A stretch of DNA of 46,874 nt, from the sequence record PZ445467.1; one strand, written 5' to 3'. Both the position numbers and the translations under genes were made by a program. Under the pieces are notes generated by a model. The model saw nothing but the letters and a program-made list of their open reading frames with translations, was not told the DNA's origin and made no database searches. Shown here in pieces: positions 18,311 through 39,507 of the stretch; position 1 is the stretch's first letter; each line of letters begins with the position of its first letter. This DNA is from a phage.

Positions 18311-18409
18311 TTATTGTTGTTTCTACGTCACTAACTATAAACGCCACATCAATCTACGTCAACAGGAATATGCTAAAATCATGCTAATCAAAAAACAGGA
18401 GATTTGAGC
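18311..18409. promoter_or_regulatory. divergent promoter region with two ATCTAC motif copies
   Basis: motifs at 18319-18331 and 18350-18363; TGCTAAAAT extended -10 at 18371-18379; AGGAG SD before ATG 18410. Confidence 0.5.
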
Positions 18410-35263: not shown

Positions 35264-35452
35264 TCACTCAAATTCTACAAAATCACCACCAACCATTTCG
35301 ACGATAATGAATCCAGATTCATCATCATATGTTGCCTGCCATATAGCTCCAGTTTCGTCGCTTATTTTAAAGGTACCACCAAAAAAGTCAGCGCTATACC
35401 ACTCATCTTCTTTAAATCTTTTGCTTGTTGAGCTTGCACAAAATAATTTCAT
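35264..35452 (-). CDS. hypothetical protein (62 aa)
   Basis: ATG 35452 preceded by GTGAGGTG. Confidence 0.4.
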   Translation of the reverse strand: MKLFCASSTSKRFKEDEWYSADFFGGTFKISDETGAIWQATYDDESGFIIVEMVGGDFVEFE

Positions 35453-35469
35453 TTGCATCACCTCACTAA

Positions 35470-36408
35470 TTATAAATTAAACTGTTTTTTGAACCATTCA
35501 GGCGTTTCCATTTCTATGACAGGATTACCCATTGAATAACCGGGCCACGAATTGGCTTTTTTGCACGCCTTGTAAATTTCCATAGCGCCATGCAACTGAA
35601 TTCGACCGATGCGTAATTGCTCTTCAGTCAAGCGAATTAACGCAGGAATAAATGGTGCTTTCTTTTCCTGAACGAGAAGATTAACAGAGCGTGGCGCATG
35701 ACCATATGCCGCAACAAACATGTCGTGCTGCATCGCCATTTTCATAAAGTACCCAAGTCTCGCAGCATGACGGAAAAACTCTTCTGGCTTGGCGCTCACC
35801 GCTGTTTTGTAGTCGATGATGTCGCCACCTTTGGTAAGGCAGTCAAAGCGAACTTTTGCCTTCTCTCCGTTAAGTTCACCTAGAATTGACACTTCAGCAT
35901 AAGCACCAGCGAGAAGACTGCTGTAATAGCTGTTTGCGTGGATTACAGCACGCATTTGCTGAATAGCGTCATAATCACCACCTTCCAGCATTTGCTTTCC
36001 TACAGCAGCTTTTTCAGCCTCTTCACGGATGACATCGTAAATTTTCACTGGCTCGCCAGTCGCCTGGATGATTTTGATCACCTCAGCTTTCGACTTTCCT
36101 GAAAGTCCTTTGATGCCTCGTTCTTTTGCCCATGAGTTCATATCACTTACAGTAACAAGCAGGTCATCACCAAAATCTTCTTTGGTTGGCATTCGTGCAT
36201 ATTCAGCATCAAAACGCTCTGGTTCAAGCAACGCAGTATGGCTACCTGTACCGAATATAAGAGCTTTTGATTGCTCATCCTCTTCGTCTTTGTATCGCCA
36301 TGCTGCTGGGCATCTGTCAAGTATATTCCATAATCCAGAGCCATTAATATGCTCTGTGTCTGCGTGGTAATCTTCATTACTGAGTTCATTATTGAAATAG
36401 ACTTTCAT
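35470..36408 (-). CDS. PD-(D/E)xK family nuclease (DUF3799/Cas4-like, putative exonuclease)
   Basis: GTGSHTALLEP and DIIDYKT segments consistent with PD-(D/E)xK nucleases; GGAGAG SD. Confidence 0.5.
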   Translation of the reverse strand: MKVYFNNELSNEDYHADTEHINGSGLWNILDRCPAAWRYKDEEDEQSKALIFGTGSHTALLEPERFDAEYARMPTKEDFGDDLLVTVSDMNSWAKERGIKGLSGKSKAEVIKIIQATGEPVKIYDVIREEAEKAAVGKQMLEGGDYDAIQQMRAVIHANSYYSSLLAGAYAEVSILGELNGEKAKVRFDCLTKGGDIIDYKTAVSAKPEEFFRHAARLGYFMKMAMQHDMFVAAYGHAPRSVNLLVQEKKAPFIPALIRLTEEQLRIGRIQLHGAMEIYKACKKANSWPGYSMGNPVIEMETPEWFKKQFNL

Positions 36409-36410
36409 CA

Positions 36411-37037
36411 TCACTCTCCGTGGTTACAGAATTCTTTATGCATCTTTTCTCTAAACTTCATGACAGCAACTCTTGCTTTATCAATATCATGAAATAATCC
36501 AATGTGGTATTTAATACCATTAACCGTACATCTGGCATGCCATTTTTTGCATTGTTTGTTCCAGTAAACACCTTTCACTCCAGATGTATTATTTTTTTGC
36601 TTTTTACGATTAAACTGATTCTGTTCATTGCTTGCTATTCTTAAGTTATCAATCCTGTTGTCATCTCTAATGCCATTAATGTGATCAATATTATCTTCTT
36701 GCCAATAACCATAACAAATCAACCACGCGAGTATGTGAGCATAATACCTATTATTATTTATGCTTATTTCTATGTAACCGTTATCTTTTTTGCAGCCCGC
36801 CAAATCTCCATTGTTTACGCAACCAACAGTCTTGTTCCATGCAAACAAACCAGTTACCAGATTGTAAGTTAAGTTATCTAAAACAACATTACGAGGTATT
36901 CTTTTTCTTCCACCTATGGTGTTTGACCCTGCATTTCCCTGAGCAAAATCTTGCTTTTGCAGTTCCGATAAACTCATTTCCGCAAACCTCGCACTTCTTA
37001 ACGGTGATAGCCATTTCTTAACCTCTATTGTAATCAT
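36411..37037 (-). CDS. HNH homing endonuclease with C-terminal AP2 DNA-binding domain
   Basis: HNH_3 pattern YYAHILAWL...DHINGIRDDNRIDNLR; AP2-like GVKGVYWNKQCKKWHARCTVNGIKYHIGLF. Confidence 0.8.
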   Translation of the reverse strand: MITIEVKKWLSPLRSARFAEMSLSELQKQDFAQGNAGSNTIGGRKRIPRNVVLDNLTYNLVTGLFAWNKTVGCVNNGDLAGCKKDNGYIEISINNNRYYAHILAWLICYGYWQEDNIDHINGIRDDNRIDNLRIASNEQNQFNRKKQKNNTSGVKGVYWNKQCKKWHARCTVNGIKYHIGLFHDIDKARVAVMKFREKMHKEFCNHGE

Positions 37038-37082
37038 TTACCGTTACATTGCAAGTAACTTTTATTTGTTACTAACAATACA

Positions 37083-37430
37083 TCAATCTACATCATTCAG
37101 CAAGCCAAAATAGAAAAGTGTGGCTCTTTTTAGTTCATCAAGACCGTAAGCAATGGCGGCATAATGACCAAGTCTGCACATCTCAGTTAACACAGCCGAT
37201 TGCTCCTTGCTCACTCTGCTTTTGCTTTTATCGCGGCGCTTTGACTCAATCATCCCGCAACTGTGATTCGCACCCGGCGTCATTATCACGTTGTCGCCTA
37301 TTCCAGGCTTAACCCCCATCTTCTGGCGCTTCAGTACGAACTGGACGCGGCTGGATGTTCCTGTTTCATTCGGGACGTGAAACCATAGCACATCAGGGAA
37401 ACAGTGTTGCATCCATGTTCCATAACCCAT
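37083..37430 (-). CDS. VRR-NUC domain nuclease
   Basis: HVPNE...GVKPGIGDNVIM...ESKRRD pattern; ATG 37430 after GAGGAG (track ORF has TTG at 37523). Confidence 0.5.
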   Translation of the reverse strand: MGYGTWMQHCFPDVLWFHVPNETGTSSRVQFVLKRQKMGVKPGIGDNVIMTPGANHSCGMIESKRRDKSKSRVSKEQSAVLTEMCRLGHYAAIAYGLDELKRATLFYFGLLNDVD

Positions 37431-37494
37431 CTGGTCAGTCTCCTCTTTTGGGCATTCGCCGCGATAACCGCTATCAAATACCCATATACCGCTA

Positions 37495-39432
37495 TCAAGC
37501 TGCTTCACTTTGTTCTCCTGCAAAATCTTTTCTATGGATTATGTCGCGACCTTTATCATTAATGCGATGAGTGATGCGTTTTGGCGCTTTAATCAATCCA
37601 GCATACATCATGAACTGCTTAGCATTCTGGCATTTCAGGATTTTCCCCGCCATTGACTTATCATCAAGGTGAGGAAAAATAGCCTTTGCCTTGAACATGT
37701 TTTTCATGTGAGTCGCACCGCCATATGGGTAGAAAACTTCGTTAGCCCAGCCTTCTTTGCCATCACAACGATTAATCCAGTAGCGATACAAAATACCTTC
37801 TCCATCCTTTGTTAGCTGGACTTTGAAATCAATAACATCAGCCCACTCATTATCGGTATACGCACGCTCATTCAGTGCCGCATTCGGGTCGCGCAACACG
37901 TGATCGCAATGCCGGCAATAGCGCGCCGTTGGGTCGTTTTTAGTGCCGCATCCATCATCAAAAATCCGTATTCCGTGCTTATCAAAACCGCAACGAATAT
38001 AACTGAAAAACTCCTCGCAGCGACCATCTGGCGACAATGCATCTTTGCCAATGCATCGACGCGCATATGGGCTGTTCATTGTTCCACATGTATGACACGG
38101 AACTTGTTCGCCACTGCGTTTTGAACGTTGCGCTTCAGCTTCTTCCAGAATTGGGTCTTCATATAGCTGACCAAGCTCAAACATCGTGCCTGAGAAATCA
38201 AGAACCAGATGGTTTTCTTTATGATACCCGGCGTCAATTTGGTCTTTCTTCAGCAGTCGCATTCCGCGACCAAGCAACTGAACAAGAAGGGTGAGCGACA
38301 TTATTTTTCGCAATATAACGCTTGTATCCCATAGCGGGATGTTTACGCCGGTCGTCAAGCAACCAATTTGGAAAACATATTTAATCTTGCCAGTGTATGC
38401 ATCCTTTAATGCCTTGCGTCTGGCTTTCTGTCCCATATCTTCGGTGACGATCGCATAACTTCCTTCAGGTAGGTATTTTGCCGCCTCCTGACAGTGCTTC
38501 TTGCCAGCGCATGTAATCAATACGCCGTTTCTGTTTTTTGTCAGCTCCATAACCTTGAGCATGATTTTCTGCGTGAGTGTTCCTTGCTCAAGGATTTCTT
38601 TCTGCATCTGCTTGAGTTGCTCGGTGGTAAATTCCTGAACTCCATCACTTCCTGACGCCTCAAATGCTGACAGGTCGTAATGCAGATCATCAATATCATG
38701 AAGACCAAAAATTGTAGGGACAAGAAAGCCATTATCAACAAGGTATTTGGTATCAATATTTATTATTTCATGCTTCCAGTAAGAACCCTTAATTGACTCA
38801 GTTCCACGAAATGGGCTGCCAGTGTAGCCAATAACAATGACATCGTGTCCGTATTTAGCTTTGCACCTACGGTTAAATTCGGTCATTATTACGCCGTACT
38901 GTGTGTCTGAATCTTCTCCAACAATATCCTCCCAGTTCACTTGATGGCACTCATCAACCAAAATATATCGTGGGCAAAAGTCTGAAAGTGCACACTTTGA
39001 GATAACATTGCCTGATTCATCCTTTATGTCGAAAAGTGAGTTTTTTATTGTTCTCTCCGTCCCAGCAATAAGCGGGTATGCCGTTGACTTTCTGCCAAGA
39101 GACGCGCTGAAAAGTGAGTTTTTAACACTCAGATTCCATAGCTCTTCCGCATCCTGCTCAATAATTTCCCCCTGTCTGGCAATAACAAGGCCTTCCCACC
39201 CCATATCCTGAAAGCGTCGCGCAATCATGGCAATCATAATGGTCTTTCCAGCACCTACAGATGCCGTCACAAAACTTGGCTTAGGGTCTTTGCCAAACTT
39301 GCGGATAACTTCAGCCGTCTTTTCATAAACCAGCCACTGATATGGTCGCGGCTCAATCTCACCCGTATGAACAACTGACCGCAATTTGTCTATATCCAAT
39401 TCAGCAATCATTGCGTCTATTTTATGCGTCAT
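37495..39432 (-). CDS. DExH-box superfamily II helicase (645 aa)
   Basis: Walker A ASVGAGKT; DECH box (VDECHQV); Cys-rich C-terminal region. Confidence 0.7.
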   Translation of the reverse strand: MTHKIDAMIAELDIDKLRSVVHTGEIEPRPYQWLVYEKTAEVIRKFGKDPKPSFVTASVGAGKTIMIAMIARRFQDMGWEGLVIARQGEIIEQDAEELWNLSVKNSLFSASLGRKSTAYPLIAGTERTIKNSLFDIKDESGNVISKCALSDFCPRYILVDECHQVNWEDIVGEDSDTQYGVIMTEFNRRCKAKYGHDVIVIGYTGSPFRGTESIKGSYWKHEIINIDTKYLVDNGFLVPTIFGLHDIDDLHYDLSAFEASGSDGVQEFTTEQLKQMQKEILEQGTLTQKIMLKVMELTKNRNGVLITCAGKKHCQEAAKYLPEGSYAIVTEDMGQKARRKALKDAYTGKIKYVFQIGCLTTGVNIPLWDTSVILRKIMSLTLLVQLLGRGMRLLKKDQIDAGYHKENHLVLDFSGTMFELGQLYEDPILEEAEAQRSKRSGEQVPCHTCGTMNSPYARRCIGKDALSPDGRCEEFFSYIRCGFDKHGIRIFDDGCGTKNDPTARYCRHCDHVLRDPNAALNERAYTDNEWADVIDFKVQLTKDGEGILYRYWINRCDGKEGWANEVFYPYGGATHMKNMFKAKAIFPHLDDKSMAGKILKCQNAKQFMMYAGLIKAPKRITHRINDKGRDIIHRKDFAGEQSEAA

Positions 39433-39507
39433 AGCTACTAACCTTTGTTGATGTTTCTACGTCAGTTAGCTTATACTCAATCTACACCAACAATCAAGGG
39501 TCAATTT
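39433..39507. promoter_or_regulatory. divergent promoter region (helicase leftward, primase rightward) with two ATCTAC motif copies
   Basis: TTGATG 39448-39453, TATACT 39472-39477; motifs 39453-39465 and 39478-39491. Confidence 0.5.

Follow-up and report, generated by a model that had tools for sequence, protein, structure and literature searches.

A putative homing-endonuclease cassette with a conserved, out-of-phase zinc-ribbon leader gene in the recombination module of a Skatevirus-like coliphage

In the stretch of phage DNA analysed here (46,874 nucleotides, sequence record PZ445467.1; hereafter the window), a gene for an HNH-type nuclease lies on the minus strand between the gene for exonuclease VIII and a gene of the phrog_824 family (Table 1). 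A first-pass annotation, made from the sequence alone, had placed it between PD-(D/E)xK nuclease and VRR-NUC genes. The former neighbour was correctly recognised, since exonuclease VIII matches DUF3799/PDDEXK, but the VRR-NUC label does not stand: the product of the upstream gene matches no Pfam family even at E ≤ 10, and its GD...ESK motif is at most compatible with a PD-(D/E)xK nuclease. At its 3' end the nuclease gene overlaps the start of its neighbour, with the C-terminal codons (GGAGAG) supplying the Shine-Dalgarno (SD) sequence of exonuclease VIII, and the C-terminus ...FCNHGE is kept in all variants found at this position (site 1).

Table 1. Features of the cassette, its neighbours and its landing sites in the window
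Feature	Coordinates	Strand	Details
Exonuclease VIII gene (downstream neighbour)	35470..36414		DUF3799/PDDEXK, 6e-25; phrog_412
3' junction	36406..36414	minus	Nuclease stop TGA (36413-36411) overlaps GTG/ATG/ATG of exonuclease VIII
Whole mobile cassette (putative)	36409..37078	minus	670 bp; in place of the 33-bp spacer GATTCATTTACGTGATGATGAGTGAGGTTAACA of empty alleles
Replacement patch versus Bas77	36411..37280	minus	Identity drop relative to a near-isogenic phage
Nuclease ORF as annotated in Bas77	36411..37037	minus	208 aa; ORF of the first-pass annotation
Likeliest nuclease frame (frame B)	36411..36977	minus	188 aa from the internal ATG
AP2-type DNA-binding domain (predicted)	36438..36584	minus	Sub-threshold Pfam match and structural matches 1gcc, 7et5
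HNH_3 His-Me finger 'HNN' core	36615..36746	minus	Pfam, 34-sequence alignment, Foldseek
41-aa zinc-ribbon ORF (frame A), unannotated	36889..37014	minus	MAITVKKCEVCGNEFIGTAKARFCSGKCRVKHHRWKKKNTS; SD AGAGG at 37026-37022
Junction tract	36901..36915	minus	AGG TGG AAG AAA AAG (R-W-K-K-K in frame A); candidate +1 shift site
Internal SD GAGG(T) inside the ribbon ORF	36987..36990	minus	8 nt before ATG 36977
Promoter-like site	37027..37054	minus	-35 TTGCAA (37054-37049), 16-nt spacer, -10 TACAAT (37032-37027)
Recipient-site motif	37079..37094	plus	AATCTACATC intact at 37085-37094; TACATC (37079-37084) is the remnant of a second copy
phrog_824 gene (upstream neighbour)	37083..37523		phrog_824, function unassigned; only match
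Empty second landing site, primase/helicase junction	39433..39444		Filled in about a quarter of related phages

The earlier description of the product as an HNH endonuclease with an AP2 domain is borne out, the HNH part by a profile match above the cut-off and the AP2 part by fold only. The 208-residue ORF matches HNH_3 (PF13392) over residues 98–141 with E = 1.3e-14 (53.9 bits against a cut-off of 24.8 bits; Pfam) and phrog_99, 'HNH endonuclease', at 4e-64. Its core comprises an HILAW box, D118-H119, N127, N131-L-R133, N140 and N143, and all of the residues that are invariant in 34 homologues (H101, D118, H119, N127, N131, L132, R133, N140 and N143) are present. The match to the AP2 profile (PF00847) over residues 152–200 falls below threshold (E = 0.0038, 17.9 against 33.3 bits; Pfam), and several close homologues carry a precomputed match to the same family. 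An AlphaFold model of the nuclease has pLDDT values above 90 over residues 46–208. With this model, Foldseek returned I-HmuI as the top PDB match (1u3e; probability 1.00 over 92 columns, with an E-value of only 9e-3), together with the plant AP2 domain of AtERF1 (1gcc; probability 1.00, TM 0.63, rmsd 1.3 Å over 47 residues) and TEM1 (7et5) as a second AP2 structural match; a phmmer search of the PDB with the nuclease sequence gave no match. The AP2 region is modelled as three strands (157–160, 165–172 and 175–182) followed by a helix (185–203), that is, a three-stranded sheet on one helix, and because the model matches plant AP2 domains the assignment is right by fold. The cassette nuclease combines an intact I-HmuI-like HNH ('HNN') core with an AP2 DNA-binding domain. 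Such a protein is routine in itself: phages commonly encode HNH-AP2 homing endonucleases, and in close relatives the present gene already carries an annotation.

The junctions of the window were aligned with those of empty alleles (ST46, Bas81 and L005), of alleles with a 58-aa ORF at the same spot (SeSz-2/L018) and of filled alleles (Bas77, L036 and L038). This comparison with insert-free relatives, which the first-pass annotation had proposed, fixed the boundaries of the cassette to within a few bases. The empty alleles have only the 33-bp spacer at this position, the 58-aa ORF constitutes a third allele, and the cassette is found at site 1 in about 8 of 179 related phage records (~4%). Since insert-free alleles exist, the gene is not a constant feature of all relatives, and it is a genuine, free-standing and sporadically distributed insertion, as the first-pass annotation had supposed. 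Identity to Bas77 is 73% over the nuclease body and 91% over the adjoining ~200–300 bp (the end of the upstream gene), against 97% for the leader at 36900–37050 and 99–100% for flanks elsewhere. To judge from these sequences, the nuclease body is swapped between otherwise near-identical phages; the replacement patch is compatible with homing and co-conversion of the flank, of which it is not proof. A second landing site, at the primase/helicase junction (site 2), carries a paralogous cassette, headed by this leader too, in about 45 of the 179 records. Bas78, L027 and L028 have cassettes at both sites, and Bas81 has a nuclease pseudogene with an in-frame stop. The site-1 cassette carries a copy of the helicase 5'-leader repeat and so probably descends from the site-2 cassette. 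The segment 36409–37078 is a free-standing, putatively homing endonuclease cassette in the phrog_824/exonuclease VIII spacer of a Skatevirus-like coliphage.

All empty alleles have two tandem copies of the recipient-site sequence AATCTACATC, the second of which is split by the cassette. Within the intact copy, the hexamer ATCTAC lies at 37086–37091 on the plus strand, antisense relative to the local genes, and shares bases with the final codons (D-V-D-stop) of the phrog_824 gene, much as the first-pass annotation had seen. As a 6-mer the motif is not enriched in the window (21 found against 15 expected, with 7 of 100 shuffles reaching 21); the 10-mer AATCTACRTC, with up to one mismatch, is enriched (17 against 4.7 expected, reached in none of 100 shuffles). 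The proposal that the insertion had acquired this motif as a local regulatory signal fails, because the motif is native to the empty site and codes for the C-terminus of the upstream protein, and the insertion truncates its second copy.

The first ~170 bp of the cassette form a leader that contains a promoter-like site, an unannotated zinc-ribbon ORF and an A-rich tract encoding R-x-K-K. The spacer of the promoter-like site includes an imperfect palindrome, TGTAAC-N8-ATTACA (37048–37029), which is a candidate operator. On its own, the 9/12 match obtained in a promoter scan is not above chance; the hexamers, and how far they lie from the ATG, are conserved in 11 leader lineages, in which the sequence of the spacer varies. 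The cassette is predicted to bring its own conserved sigma-70-like promoter, and if transcription starts ~7 nt past the -10 hexamer, the SD sequence of the ribbon ORF would be absent from that transcript. Public RNA-labelled runs (X5–X8) consisted solely of assembler contigs of a ~94% relative, at flat depth and with neither 5' ends nor indel variants, and so were uninformative about transcript starts or products. Hairpins in the region (AGTAAC...GTTACT and GTTAC...GTAAC) were considered as a terminator or attenuator and rejected, being weak and AT-rich, with no T-run and no conservation at site 2.

The 41-codon ribbon ORF has a strong SD and overlaps the 5' end of the nuclease gene in a different frame; we refer to the ribbon frame as frame A and to the nuclease frame, A+1, as frame B. 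The peptide has a weak match to the DUF2116 treble clef (0.0024), and PHROG matches place it inside the HNH families 1271 and 15471. Across 21 unique leaders, positions 1, 2 and 3 of frame-A codons have 5, 8 and 22 variable sites, and the ratio of synonymous to nonsynonymous changes is 24:18 in frame A against 3:38 in frame B. In frame A, 14 of the changes between the leader of Bas81 and that of the L005 type are synonymous and 3 nonsynonymous, despite the stop codon in the Bas81 nuclease. From these substitution patterns, the purifying selection evident at the 5' end is on the zinc-ribbon frame and not on the nuclease frame. The leader DNA is near-invariant across sites while the nuclease bodies are ~45–50% identical, and the same leader heads the HNH paralogues at the primase/helicase junction, an HNH+HNH fusion and an unrelated nuclease in Vibrio phage pYD38-B. 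A search with the ribbon peptide against 1.84 billion representatives returned 609 clusters, mostly long proteins with 2–13 tandem ribbon copies; the ribbon being a common phage module, this search does not separate the models considered below.

The weak SD attributed to the nuclease gene by the first-pass annotation belongs to the annotated ATG at 37037, a start that is probably unused. This ATG has no SD and is placed ahead of the -10 hexamer and partly within it. Both the strong-SD ribbon ORF and an internal SD with its ATG had been missed. The nuclease most likely starts at this internal ATG, at 36977. In the closest database homologues the protein is called from the same codon, at 188 aa. 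The SD and ATG are identical in pYD38-B, which shares the 17-nt string GAGGTTTGCGGAAATGA. In L057/L058 a GGAG–8 nt–ATG arrangement is found relocated in the +1 frame, L054 has GTG as its internal start, and in the distant group L062/L063/L067 the downstream +1 gene has its own SD and ATG inside the ribbon ORF. In Bas81 and L016 a stop codon closes frame B before the internal ATG is reached, and the residues encoded upstream of ~36905 are unconserved as protein and modelled as disordered. Under a synonymous-shuffle null, with an SD definition picked after seeing the data, the chance of such an SD plus start is 0.10 for leaders of the window type and 0.014 for the L058 type. Against the internal start, the ATG is replaced by ATA in L038, a metagenomic copy whose nuclease is otherwise intact. 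Two further observations would fit a ribbon-nuclease fusion equally well: leaderless homologues begin at the end of the A-tract, with Met exactly at window R44-I45, and in-frame zinc-ribbon-HNH proteins exist in other phages (PHROG 1271, 15471; L029). The R-x-K-K tract is conserved, and it is here that selection on frame A ends and the homologous frame-B nuclease body begins, in the +1 frame relative to the ribbon in all 26+ leaders examined. Re-initiation at the ribbon stop was rejected as a route to the nuclease, the ATG of TAATG being in the wrong frame and the TTG of Bas77 being TTA in the window and unconserved. As the annotated start is probably wrong, the protein sequence in GenBank relatives is probably off by 20 residues.

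The reading that we favour, to which we assign a probability of roughly 0.7, is of a homing cassette with a leader that specifies two proteins and controls its own expression. A zinc-ribbon micro-protein would be made from ATG 37014 and the nuclease from internal ATG 36977, with its GAGGT SD 8 nt upstream; because of this start, the first ~24 residues of the nuclease would be a tail that is not under selection. Ribosomes engaged on the ribbon frame would pass over the nuclease start and so keep nuclease synthesis low, and the ribbon protein probably autoregulates the cassette by binding to the palindrome between the promoter hexamers. During co-infection, the nuclease would cut cassette-free genomes near the site, and repair from the cassette-bearing genome would copy in the cassette together with adjacent flank.

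Ribbon and nuclease might instead be made as one protein by programmed recoding, through a low-efficiency +1 frameshift at 36915–36901 (tRNA-Lys slipping on AAA-A/G) or, with the same effect, through slippage of RNA polymerase that drops one A. On this view the ribbon by itself is what would be made by default, and the enzyme that is active and properly targeted would be the fusion. We consider this unlikely, although the +1 relation holds in every lineage, including the unrelated body of pYD38-B and the 63%-identical leaders L057/L058, and the frame is 'repaired' in no relative. The exact coincidence at R-x-K-K of the end of frame-A selection, the beginning of frame-B homology and the Met of leaderless homologues is also what recoding would produce. 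An SD-like AGGTGG (AGGAGG in Bas77) stands 3 nt ahead of the AAA codon, as in prfB, and the Arg of the tract is always AGR. In-frame zinc-ribbon-HNH proteins do occur elsewhere, and the L054 body opens with CxxC directly after KKK. Among 5.8 billion proteins, no in-frame zinc-ribbon plus HNH relative of this leader was found, and a literature search for recoding in homing endonuclease genes yielded nothing relevant. AAA-R is present at the shift site in all leaders, AGG(T/A)GG in some; L013/L022 have AGACAG and hence no SD-like stimulator, the A-runs are short (A5 in the window), and the A site holds no conserved hungry or stop codon. Against recoding stand a good independent frame-B SD and ATG that are conserved, and in L057/L058 relocated, beyond chance, with frame B open from the internal ATG in all copies and stops just upstream of it. 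The downstream gene of the distant L062 group clearly initiates by itself, and the ribbon is still under selection in Bas81, where the nuclease is broken.

That the gene does not home, or has stopped doing so, and is a domesticated accessory nuclease, used for example for degrading competitor or host DNA or as a recombination aid and patchy through ordinary modular recombination, seems to us quite improbable. The gene does lie among recombination genes, with its translation coupled to that of exonuclease VIII, and the non-nuclease 58-aa ORF in other phages marks its position as a general hotspot. Proteins with HNH_3 and AP2 domains are, however, a classical free-standing homing endonuclease gene (HEG) class in phages (PMC2248197), paralogues at two sites with decayed copies (Bas81) correspond to the HEG life cycle, the replacement patch in near-isogenic phages is centred on the gene, and only ~4% of relatives carry it. 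Highly improbable, in our judgement, is expression of the nuclease from the weak-SD ATG 37037 by way of a locally acquired ATCTAC motif, as the first-pass annotation would have it. The motif is enriched in the genome and has a copy ~50 bp upstream of the ORF, but that copy predates the insertion, which partly destroyed the pair, and is coding sequence of the upstream gene; the cassette, moreover, has its own conserved promoter-like site and two good SDs, and in some relatives frame B does not run uninterrupted up to ATG 36977. Scarcely any weight attaches to the idea of a dying gene, in which a 1-bp insertion struck an ancestral in-frame zinc-ribbon-HNH gene and the nuclease part is no longer made. 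The out-of-phase arrangement would be explained, HEGs commonly decay (PMC2248197), and the copies in Bas81 and some in IMG/VR are truncated; yet the split is common to all lineages, including the Vibrio phage, with no in-frame version, and most copies retain an open frame and all invariant residues in the nuclease body despite 50% divergence.

Beyond the favoured reading of a self-regulated homing cassette, a wider proposal is offered tentatively, with the odds against it: the zinc-ribbon leader may be a portable control module for selfish phage nucleases, composed of an operator-bearing promoter, an operator-binding ribbon of 41–50 aa and a buried out-of-phase nuclease start. Its product would depend on the transcript. 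Read-through operon transcripts would carry the ribbon SD and yield repressor, with frame-A ribosomes occluding the nuclease start, while the cassette's own transcript, with a near-leaderless ribbon AUG, would favour the nuclease. Recombination past the R-x-K-K tract could plug in unrelated bodies (HNH-AP2, HNH+HNH, T5orf172-like). The conserved, selected 41-codon zinc-ribbon gene has gone unannotated in dozens of phage genomes, and the same promoter, micro-ORF and out-of-phase junction head different nuclease families in different phages. This shared leader suggests a transferable, general phage means of restraining toxic selfish nucleases; we found no paper in the literature describing such leader-based control.

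Among characterised enzymes, I-HmuI, the HNH homing endonuclease of an intron in Bacillus phage SPO1 (1u3e), shares the His-Me finger with its D-H...N...N ('HNN') signature and likewise has an extended modular DNA-binding architecture. It differs in being intron-encoded and without an AP2 domain, and it is a nickase. Free-standing HNN/HNH-AP2 genes have been described in Xp10/OP1/Xop411, T5 (hegG/hegJ), T1 and RB49/RB43 (PMC2248197, PMC2993671). These share the HRLAW, DH, DNR, NLR and (E/Q)N boxes followed by AP2, and also the intergenic free-standing position, variable multiple sites, sporadic distribution and decayed copies. A 2004 study by Magnani et al. is cited in those papers for HNN/HNH-AP2 genes. 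The reports on genes of the Xp10/T5/T1/RB49 type describe no common 5' leader, whereas here every copy has the promoter-like site and an out-of-phase ribbon ORF.

The free-standing HEGs SegB, SegG and MobE of T4 are likewise intergenic and next to conserved replication and recombination genes (PMC2330249). They share the local replacement of flanks along with the gene, as in co-conversion, but belong to the GIY-YIG and mob HNH families, and their homing has been shown experimentally whereas here it is putative. I-TevI represses itself, and in mobE a hairpin sequesters the ribosome-binding site. Both are cases in which 5'-end elements let a phage HEG restrain its own expression, as is proposed for the present cassette; there, the nuclease itself represses or an RNA hairpin masks the ribosome-binding site, and here the candidates are a micro-ORF and an operator. 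In the insertion sequences IS1 (InsA/InsAB') and IS3 (OrfA/OrfAB), a -1 shift at A6C or A6G gives access to a catalytic frame that has no independent start. These elements resemble the cassette in that a selfish element has, at an A-rich tract, an overlap between a short DNA-binding ORF and the catalytic ORF that follows it out of phase, but differ from it in the offset, which here is +1, and in the SD and ATG that here are present internally.

At the spacer between the phrog_824 and exonuclease VIII genes (site 1), the nuclease gene is absent from phages ST46 and Bas81 and from the metagenomic phage L005. In the direction of transcription the empty site shows GATGTAGATTGATGTA, then GATTCATTTACGTGATGATGAGTGAGGTTAACA, then ATGAAAGTC, whereas in the window GATGTAGATTGATGTA is followed by TTGTTAGTAAC, the cassette and CACGGAGAGTGATG before ATGAAAGTC resumes; 670 bp (36409-37078) therefore stand in place of 33 bp. 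At the 3' junction the nuclease stop overlaps the start of exonuclease VIII, whose Shine-Dalgarno (SD) sequence is supplied by the final nuclease codons. A 58-aa ORF forms a third allele in SeSz-2 and L018, so that this hotspot exists in three states: empty, with a small ORF, or with the nuclease cassette. This ORF (L004, 1729-1905, in SeSz-2) has no Pfam match or assigned function and is unrelated to the cassette. Compared with ST46, the window has 99-100% identity in the exonuclease VIII gene but only ~89-91% in the phrog_824 and helicase genes (35450-36408 against 37079-38500), so a mosaic breakpoint coincides with the insertion site. Two other presence/absence differences were seen nearby. 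Between the AAA_24/Sak4-like gene and exonuclease VIII, the window and Bas77 have a 65-aa ORF (35264-35461 in the window, minus strand; DUF7244, E=3.7e-6) that ST46, Bas81 and SeSz-2 lack, and Klebsiella phage SCNJ1-C (L069, 1547-2071) has an additional 174-aa gene in the helicase/phrog_824 interval that the window lacks.

The 3.5 kb around the locus, where every gene is on the minus strand, matches 179 phage records. The top match is Escherichia phage ClaudiaMuster_Bas77 (95.7%), and others are Skatevirus/Macdonaldcampvirus-like siphoviruses infecting E. coli, Salmonella and Klebsiella; Bas77-81 are O16-dependent Skatevirus-like phages (BASEL paper, PMC11990801). The 208-aa product matches Pfam HNH_3 well over threshold, AP2 under threshold and phrog_99 'HNH endonuclease' at 4e-64, and the Bas77 annotation also names it an HNH endonuclease. 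Aligned with 33 homologues it has all invariant positions (H101, D118-H119, N127, N131-L-R133, N140 and N143). The AlphaFold model has pLDDT >90 from residue ~46 to the C-terminus and is poor at residues 1-45; in the PDB its catalytic half best matches I-HmuI (1u3e), and its C-terminal half plant AP2 domains (1gcc, 7et5). The first-pass annotation had proposed a mobile HNH-AP2 endonuclease between PD-(D/E)xK and VRR-NUC genes. The insert-free alleles, with their sharp boundaries, bear out the insertion, and the enzyme and its downstream neighbour (DUF3799/exonuclease VIII by Pfam and PHROG) stand; the VRR-NUC label is not confirmed, as a Pfam search of the upstream protein (146 aa, phrog_824) found no family.

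The site-1 cassette occurs in about 8 of the 179 records (Bas77, Bas78, HC6, 6947, HC8A, CHRF_10034, NX263 and SCNJ1-C). A sliding comparison of the window with Bas77 gave 99-100% identity on both sides but merely 73% in the nuclease body and 91% in the final 200-300 bp of the upstream gene, with a breakpoint ~190 bp inside it. Nearly isogenic phages thus hold different nuclease alleles with a short replaced flank, a pattern expected from repeated invasion with co-conversion but one that ordinary recombination could also produce. Among database proteins the nuclease comes in no fewer than four variants (89, 76, 71 and 71% identity), which have their N- and C-termini in common. Three proteins (P0005, P0006 and P0022) are merely ~50% identical to the window nuclease, yet nearly the same over their first ~35 residues, and are encoded between primase and helicase genes (site 2). 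DNA alignment shows that a ~170-bp 5' segment is nearly invariant across both sites while the nuclease bodies diverge. This leader is present in 53 phage records and many IMG/VR contigs. Bas78, L027 and L028 carry a cassette at each of the two sites; site 2 is empty in the window, as in ST46.

Features of the cassette in the window
Feature	Position	Strand	Details
HNH-AP2 nuclease ORF	36411..37037	minus	208 aa; Pfam HNH_3, phrog_99
Zinc-ribbon ORF (frame A)	36889-37014	minus	41 codons, MAITVKKCEVCGNEFIGTAKARFCSGKCRVKHHRWKKKNTS; SD AGAGG, 6 nt
Promoter-like site	37054-37027	minus	TTGCAA-16-TACAAT, 9/12

The leader contains a zinc-ribbon ORF in a second frame (frame A). Among 21 unique leaders the variable sites fall 5/8/22 at frame-A codon positions 1/2/3, and the synonymous to nonsynonymous ratio is 24:18 in frame A against 3:38 in the nuclease frame (frame B). 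Relative to the L005 type, the Bas81 leader has 14 synonymous and 3 nonsynonymous frame-A changes, despite an in-frame stop in its unannotated nuclease body. By these substitution patterns the zinc-ribbon frame is a real coding sequence under selection, whereas no selection at the protein level acts on the N-terminal ~45 residues of the annotated 208-aa product, in agreement with the low model confidence there. The decayed Bas81 cassette (L008, 1557-2163) lies in an unannotated primase/helicase spacer, its 45-aa zinc-ribbon ORF intact and its HNH-AP2 body broken by TAA. The peptide has a weak DUF2116 match, is found within PHROG HNH families 1271 and 15471, and has matches in 609 clusters, where it is often tandemly repeated; by these matches the zinc ribbon is a common phage module.

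Every copy examined has its nuclease body in frame A+1, an offset also found in leaders merely 63% identical (L057/L058) and in Vibrio phage pYD38-B. Frame-A conservation stops at a conserved R-x-K-K tract (AGG TGG AAG AAA AAG in the window), past which eight tail types are unrelated to each other, and leaderless homologues have Met exactly at the position of the window's frame-B R44-I45. No in-frame version of the window-type leader was found among 5.8 billion proteins; the frame split is therefore no sequencing error but a stable arrangement of long standing. In pYD38-B (L009, 2512-3391) the leader (49 aa, A6 tract, +1 offset) follows a primase-like gene and precedes a 285-aa protein unrelated to the window nuclease (phrog_20046, 4e-88), for which a Pfam search gave no match. 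Annotated only as hypothetical, this protein has homing-endonuclease-type repeats and a T5orf172-like C-terminus; from the repeat motifs alone we read it as a nuclease.

We favour, at about 55-60%, production of the nuclease from an internal start, with ATG 36977 as the candidate. GAGGT lies 8 nt before it, an SD equal in quality to the ribbon's own, and pYD38-B, though 72% identical overall, has exactly the same 17 nt, GAGGTTTGCGGAAATGA. In L057/L058 the ribbon sequence differs, yet GGAG-8 nt-ATG recurs in the +1 frame, displaced downstream by 6 nt; the internal start is GTG in L054 and, counting against this reading, ATA in one copy (L038). When codons were shuffled with the ribbon peptide fixed, 10% of window-type and 1.4% of L058-type trials produced such a site with an open frame. 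In Bas81 and L016 a stop closes frame B shortly before ATG 36977, so the annotated ATG 37037 is not the conserved start. A distant group (L062/63/67) has a downstream +1 gene that plainly begins at its own SD and ATG within the ribbon ORF. These IMG/VR contigs (L062, L063 and L067) carry ribbon-ORF relatives 6 nt after a near-consensus promoter, then varied non-nuclease genes in the +1 frame, for which the W-R-K-K codons GGAGAAAG serve as SD.

A second model also fits: +1 recoding at the Lys tract might yield the nuclease. The ribbon/nuclease junction falls just where the nuclease family naturally has its N-terminus, in-frame ribbon-HNH proteins are known from other phages, and the AGGTGG/AGGAGG-3 nt-AAA arrangement is reminiscent of prfB; but against it stand the presence of the internal start, the shortness of the A-runs, the lack of any stop or hungry codon and, in L013/L022, a missing SD-like element, so that we consider recoding rather unlikely. 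Both routes together, or neither, take up the rest.

The promoter-like site has a score that is not rare in the window. All enterobacterial leaders nevertheless preserve both hexamers, the interval between them and the 12 nt that separate them from the ribbon ATG. In the L062 group this last gap is 6 nt, which would make the transcript leaderless, and in pYD38-B it is 20 nt; the spacer sequence is variable in all of them. Within the spacer is an imperfect palindrome (TGTAAC-N8-ATTACA in the window, TGAAAC-N8-GTTACA elsewhere), with a related unit before the -35, and we infer a candidate operator that the ribbon protein may bind. In site-2 cassettes the unit forms a 20-bp direct repeat, and where the site is empty the helicase 5' leader aligns with the first of the two copies. 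Both units are present in the window's site-1 cassette, which suggests its origin from a site-2 cassette along with a piece of flank.

An ATCTAC copy had been noted at the end of the upstream gene, and lies at 37086-37091 (plus strand) within the last phrog_824 codons. The suggestion that the endonuclease gene had acquired it as a regulatory signal fails, since two tandem copies of the motif are already present at the empty site, and the cassette interrupts the second. The 6-mer showed no enrichment in the window, but AATCTACRTC (<=1 mismatch) is enriched, with 17 copies against 4.7 expected (e.g. 1471, 6522, 9344, 18351, 23289, 37085 and 43447), mostly in promoter regions. Reversed, it reads TTGAYGTAGATT, a -35 hexamer plus 6 nt, and at 18360 TTGACG-17-TATAGT then follows; other copies lie in forward sense after the -35 or after the -10. 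The motif's probable role is that of a phage-specific promoter or regulator element.

Beyond a known nuclease, the locus presents a defined 670-bp cassette with a putative promoter of its own, a hidden zinc-ribbon gene under selection and a probably mis-annotated nuclease start; a literature search found no paper describing the leader. Free-standing HNN/HNH-AP2 endonuclease genes in phages are well described as scattered, multi-copy and often decaying (PMC2248197; PMC2993671). The window nuclease is like these and, judged by its sequence, is a homing-type enzyme of that established class and a mobile endonuclease insertion.
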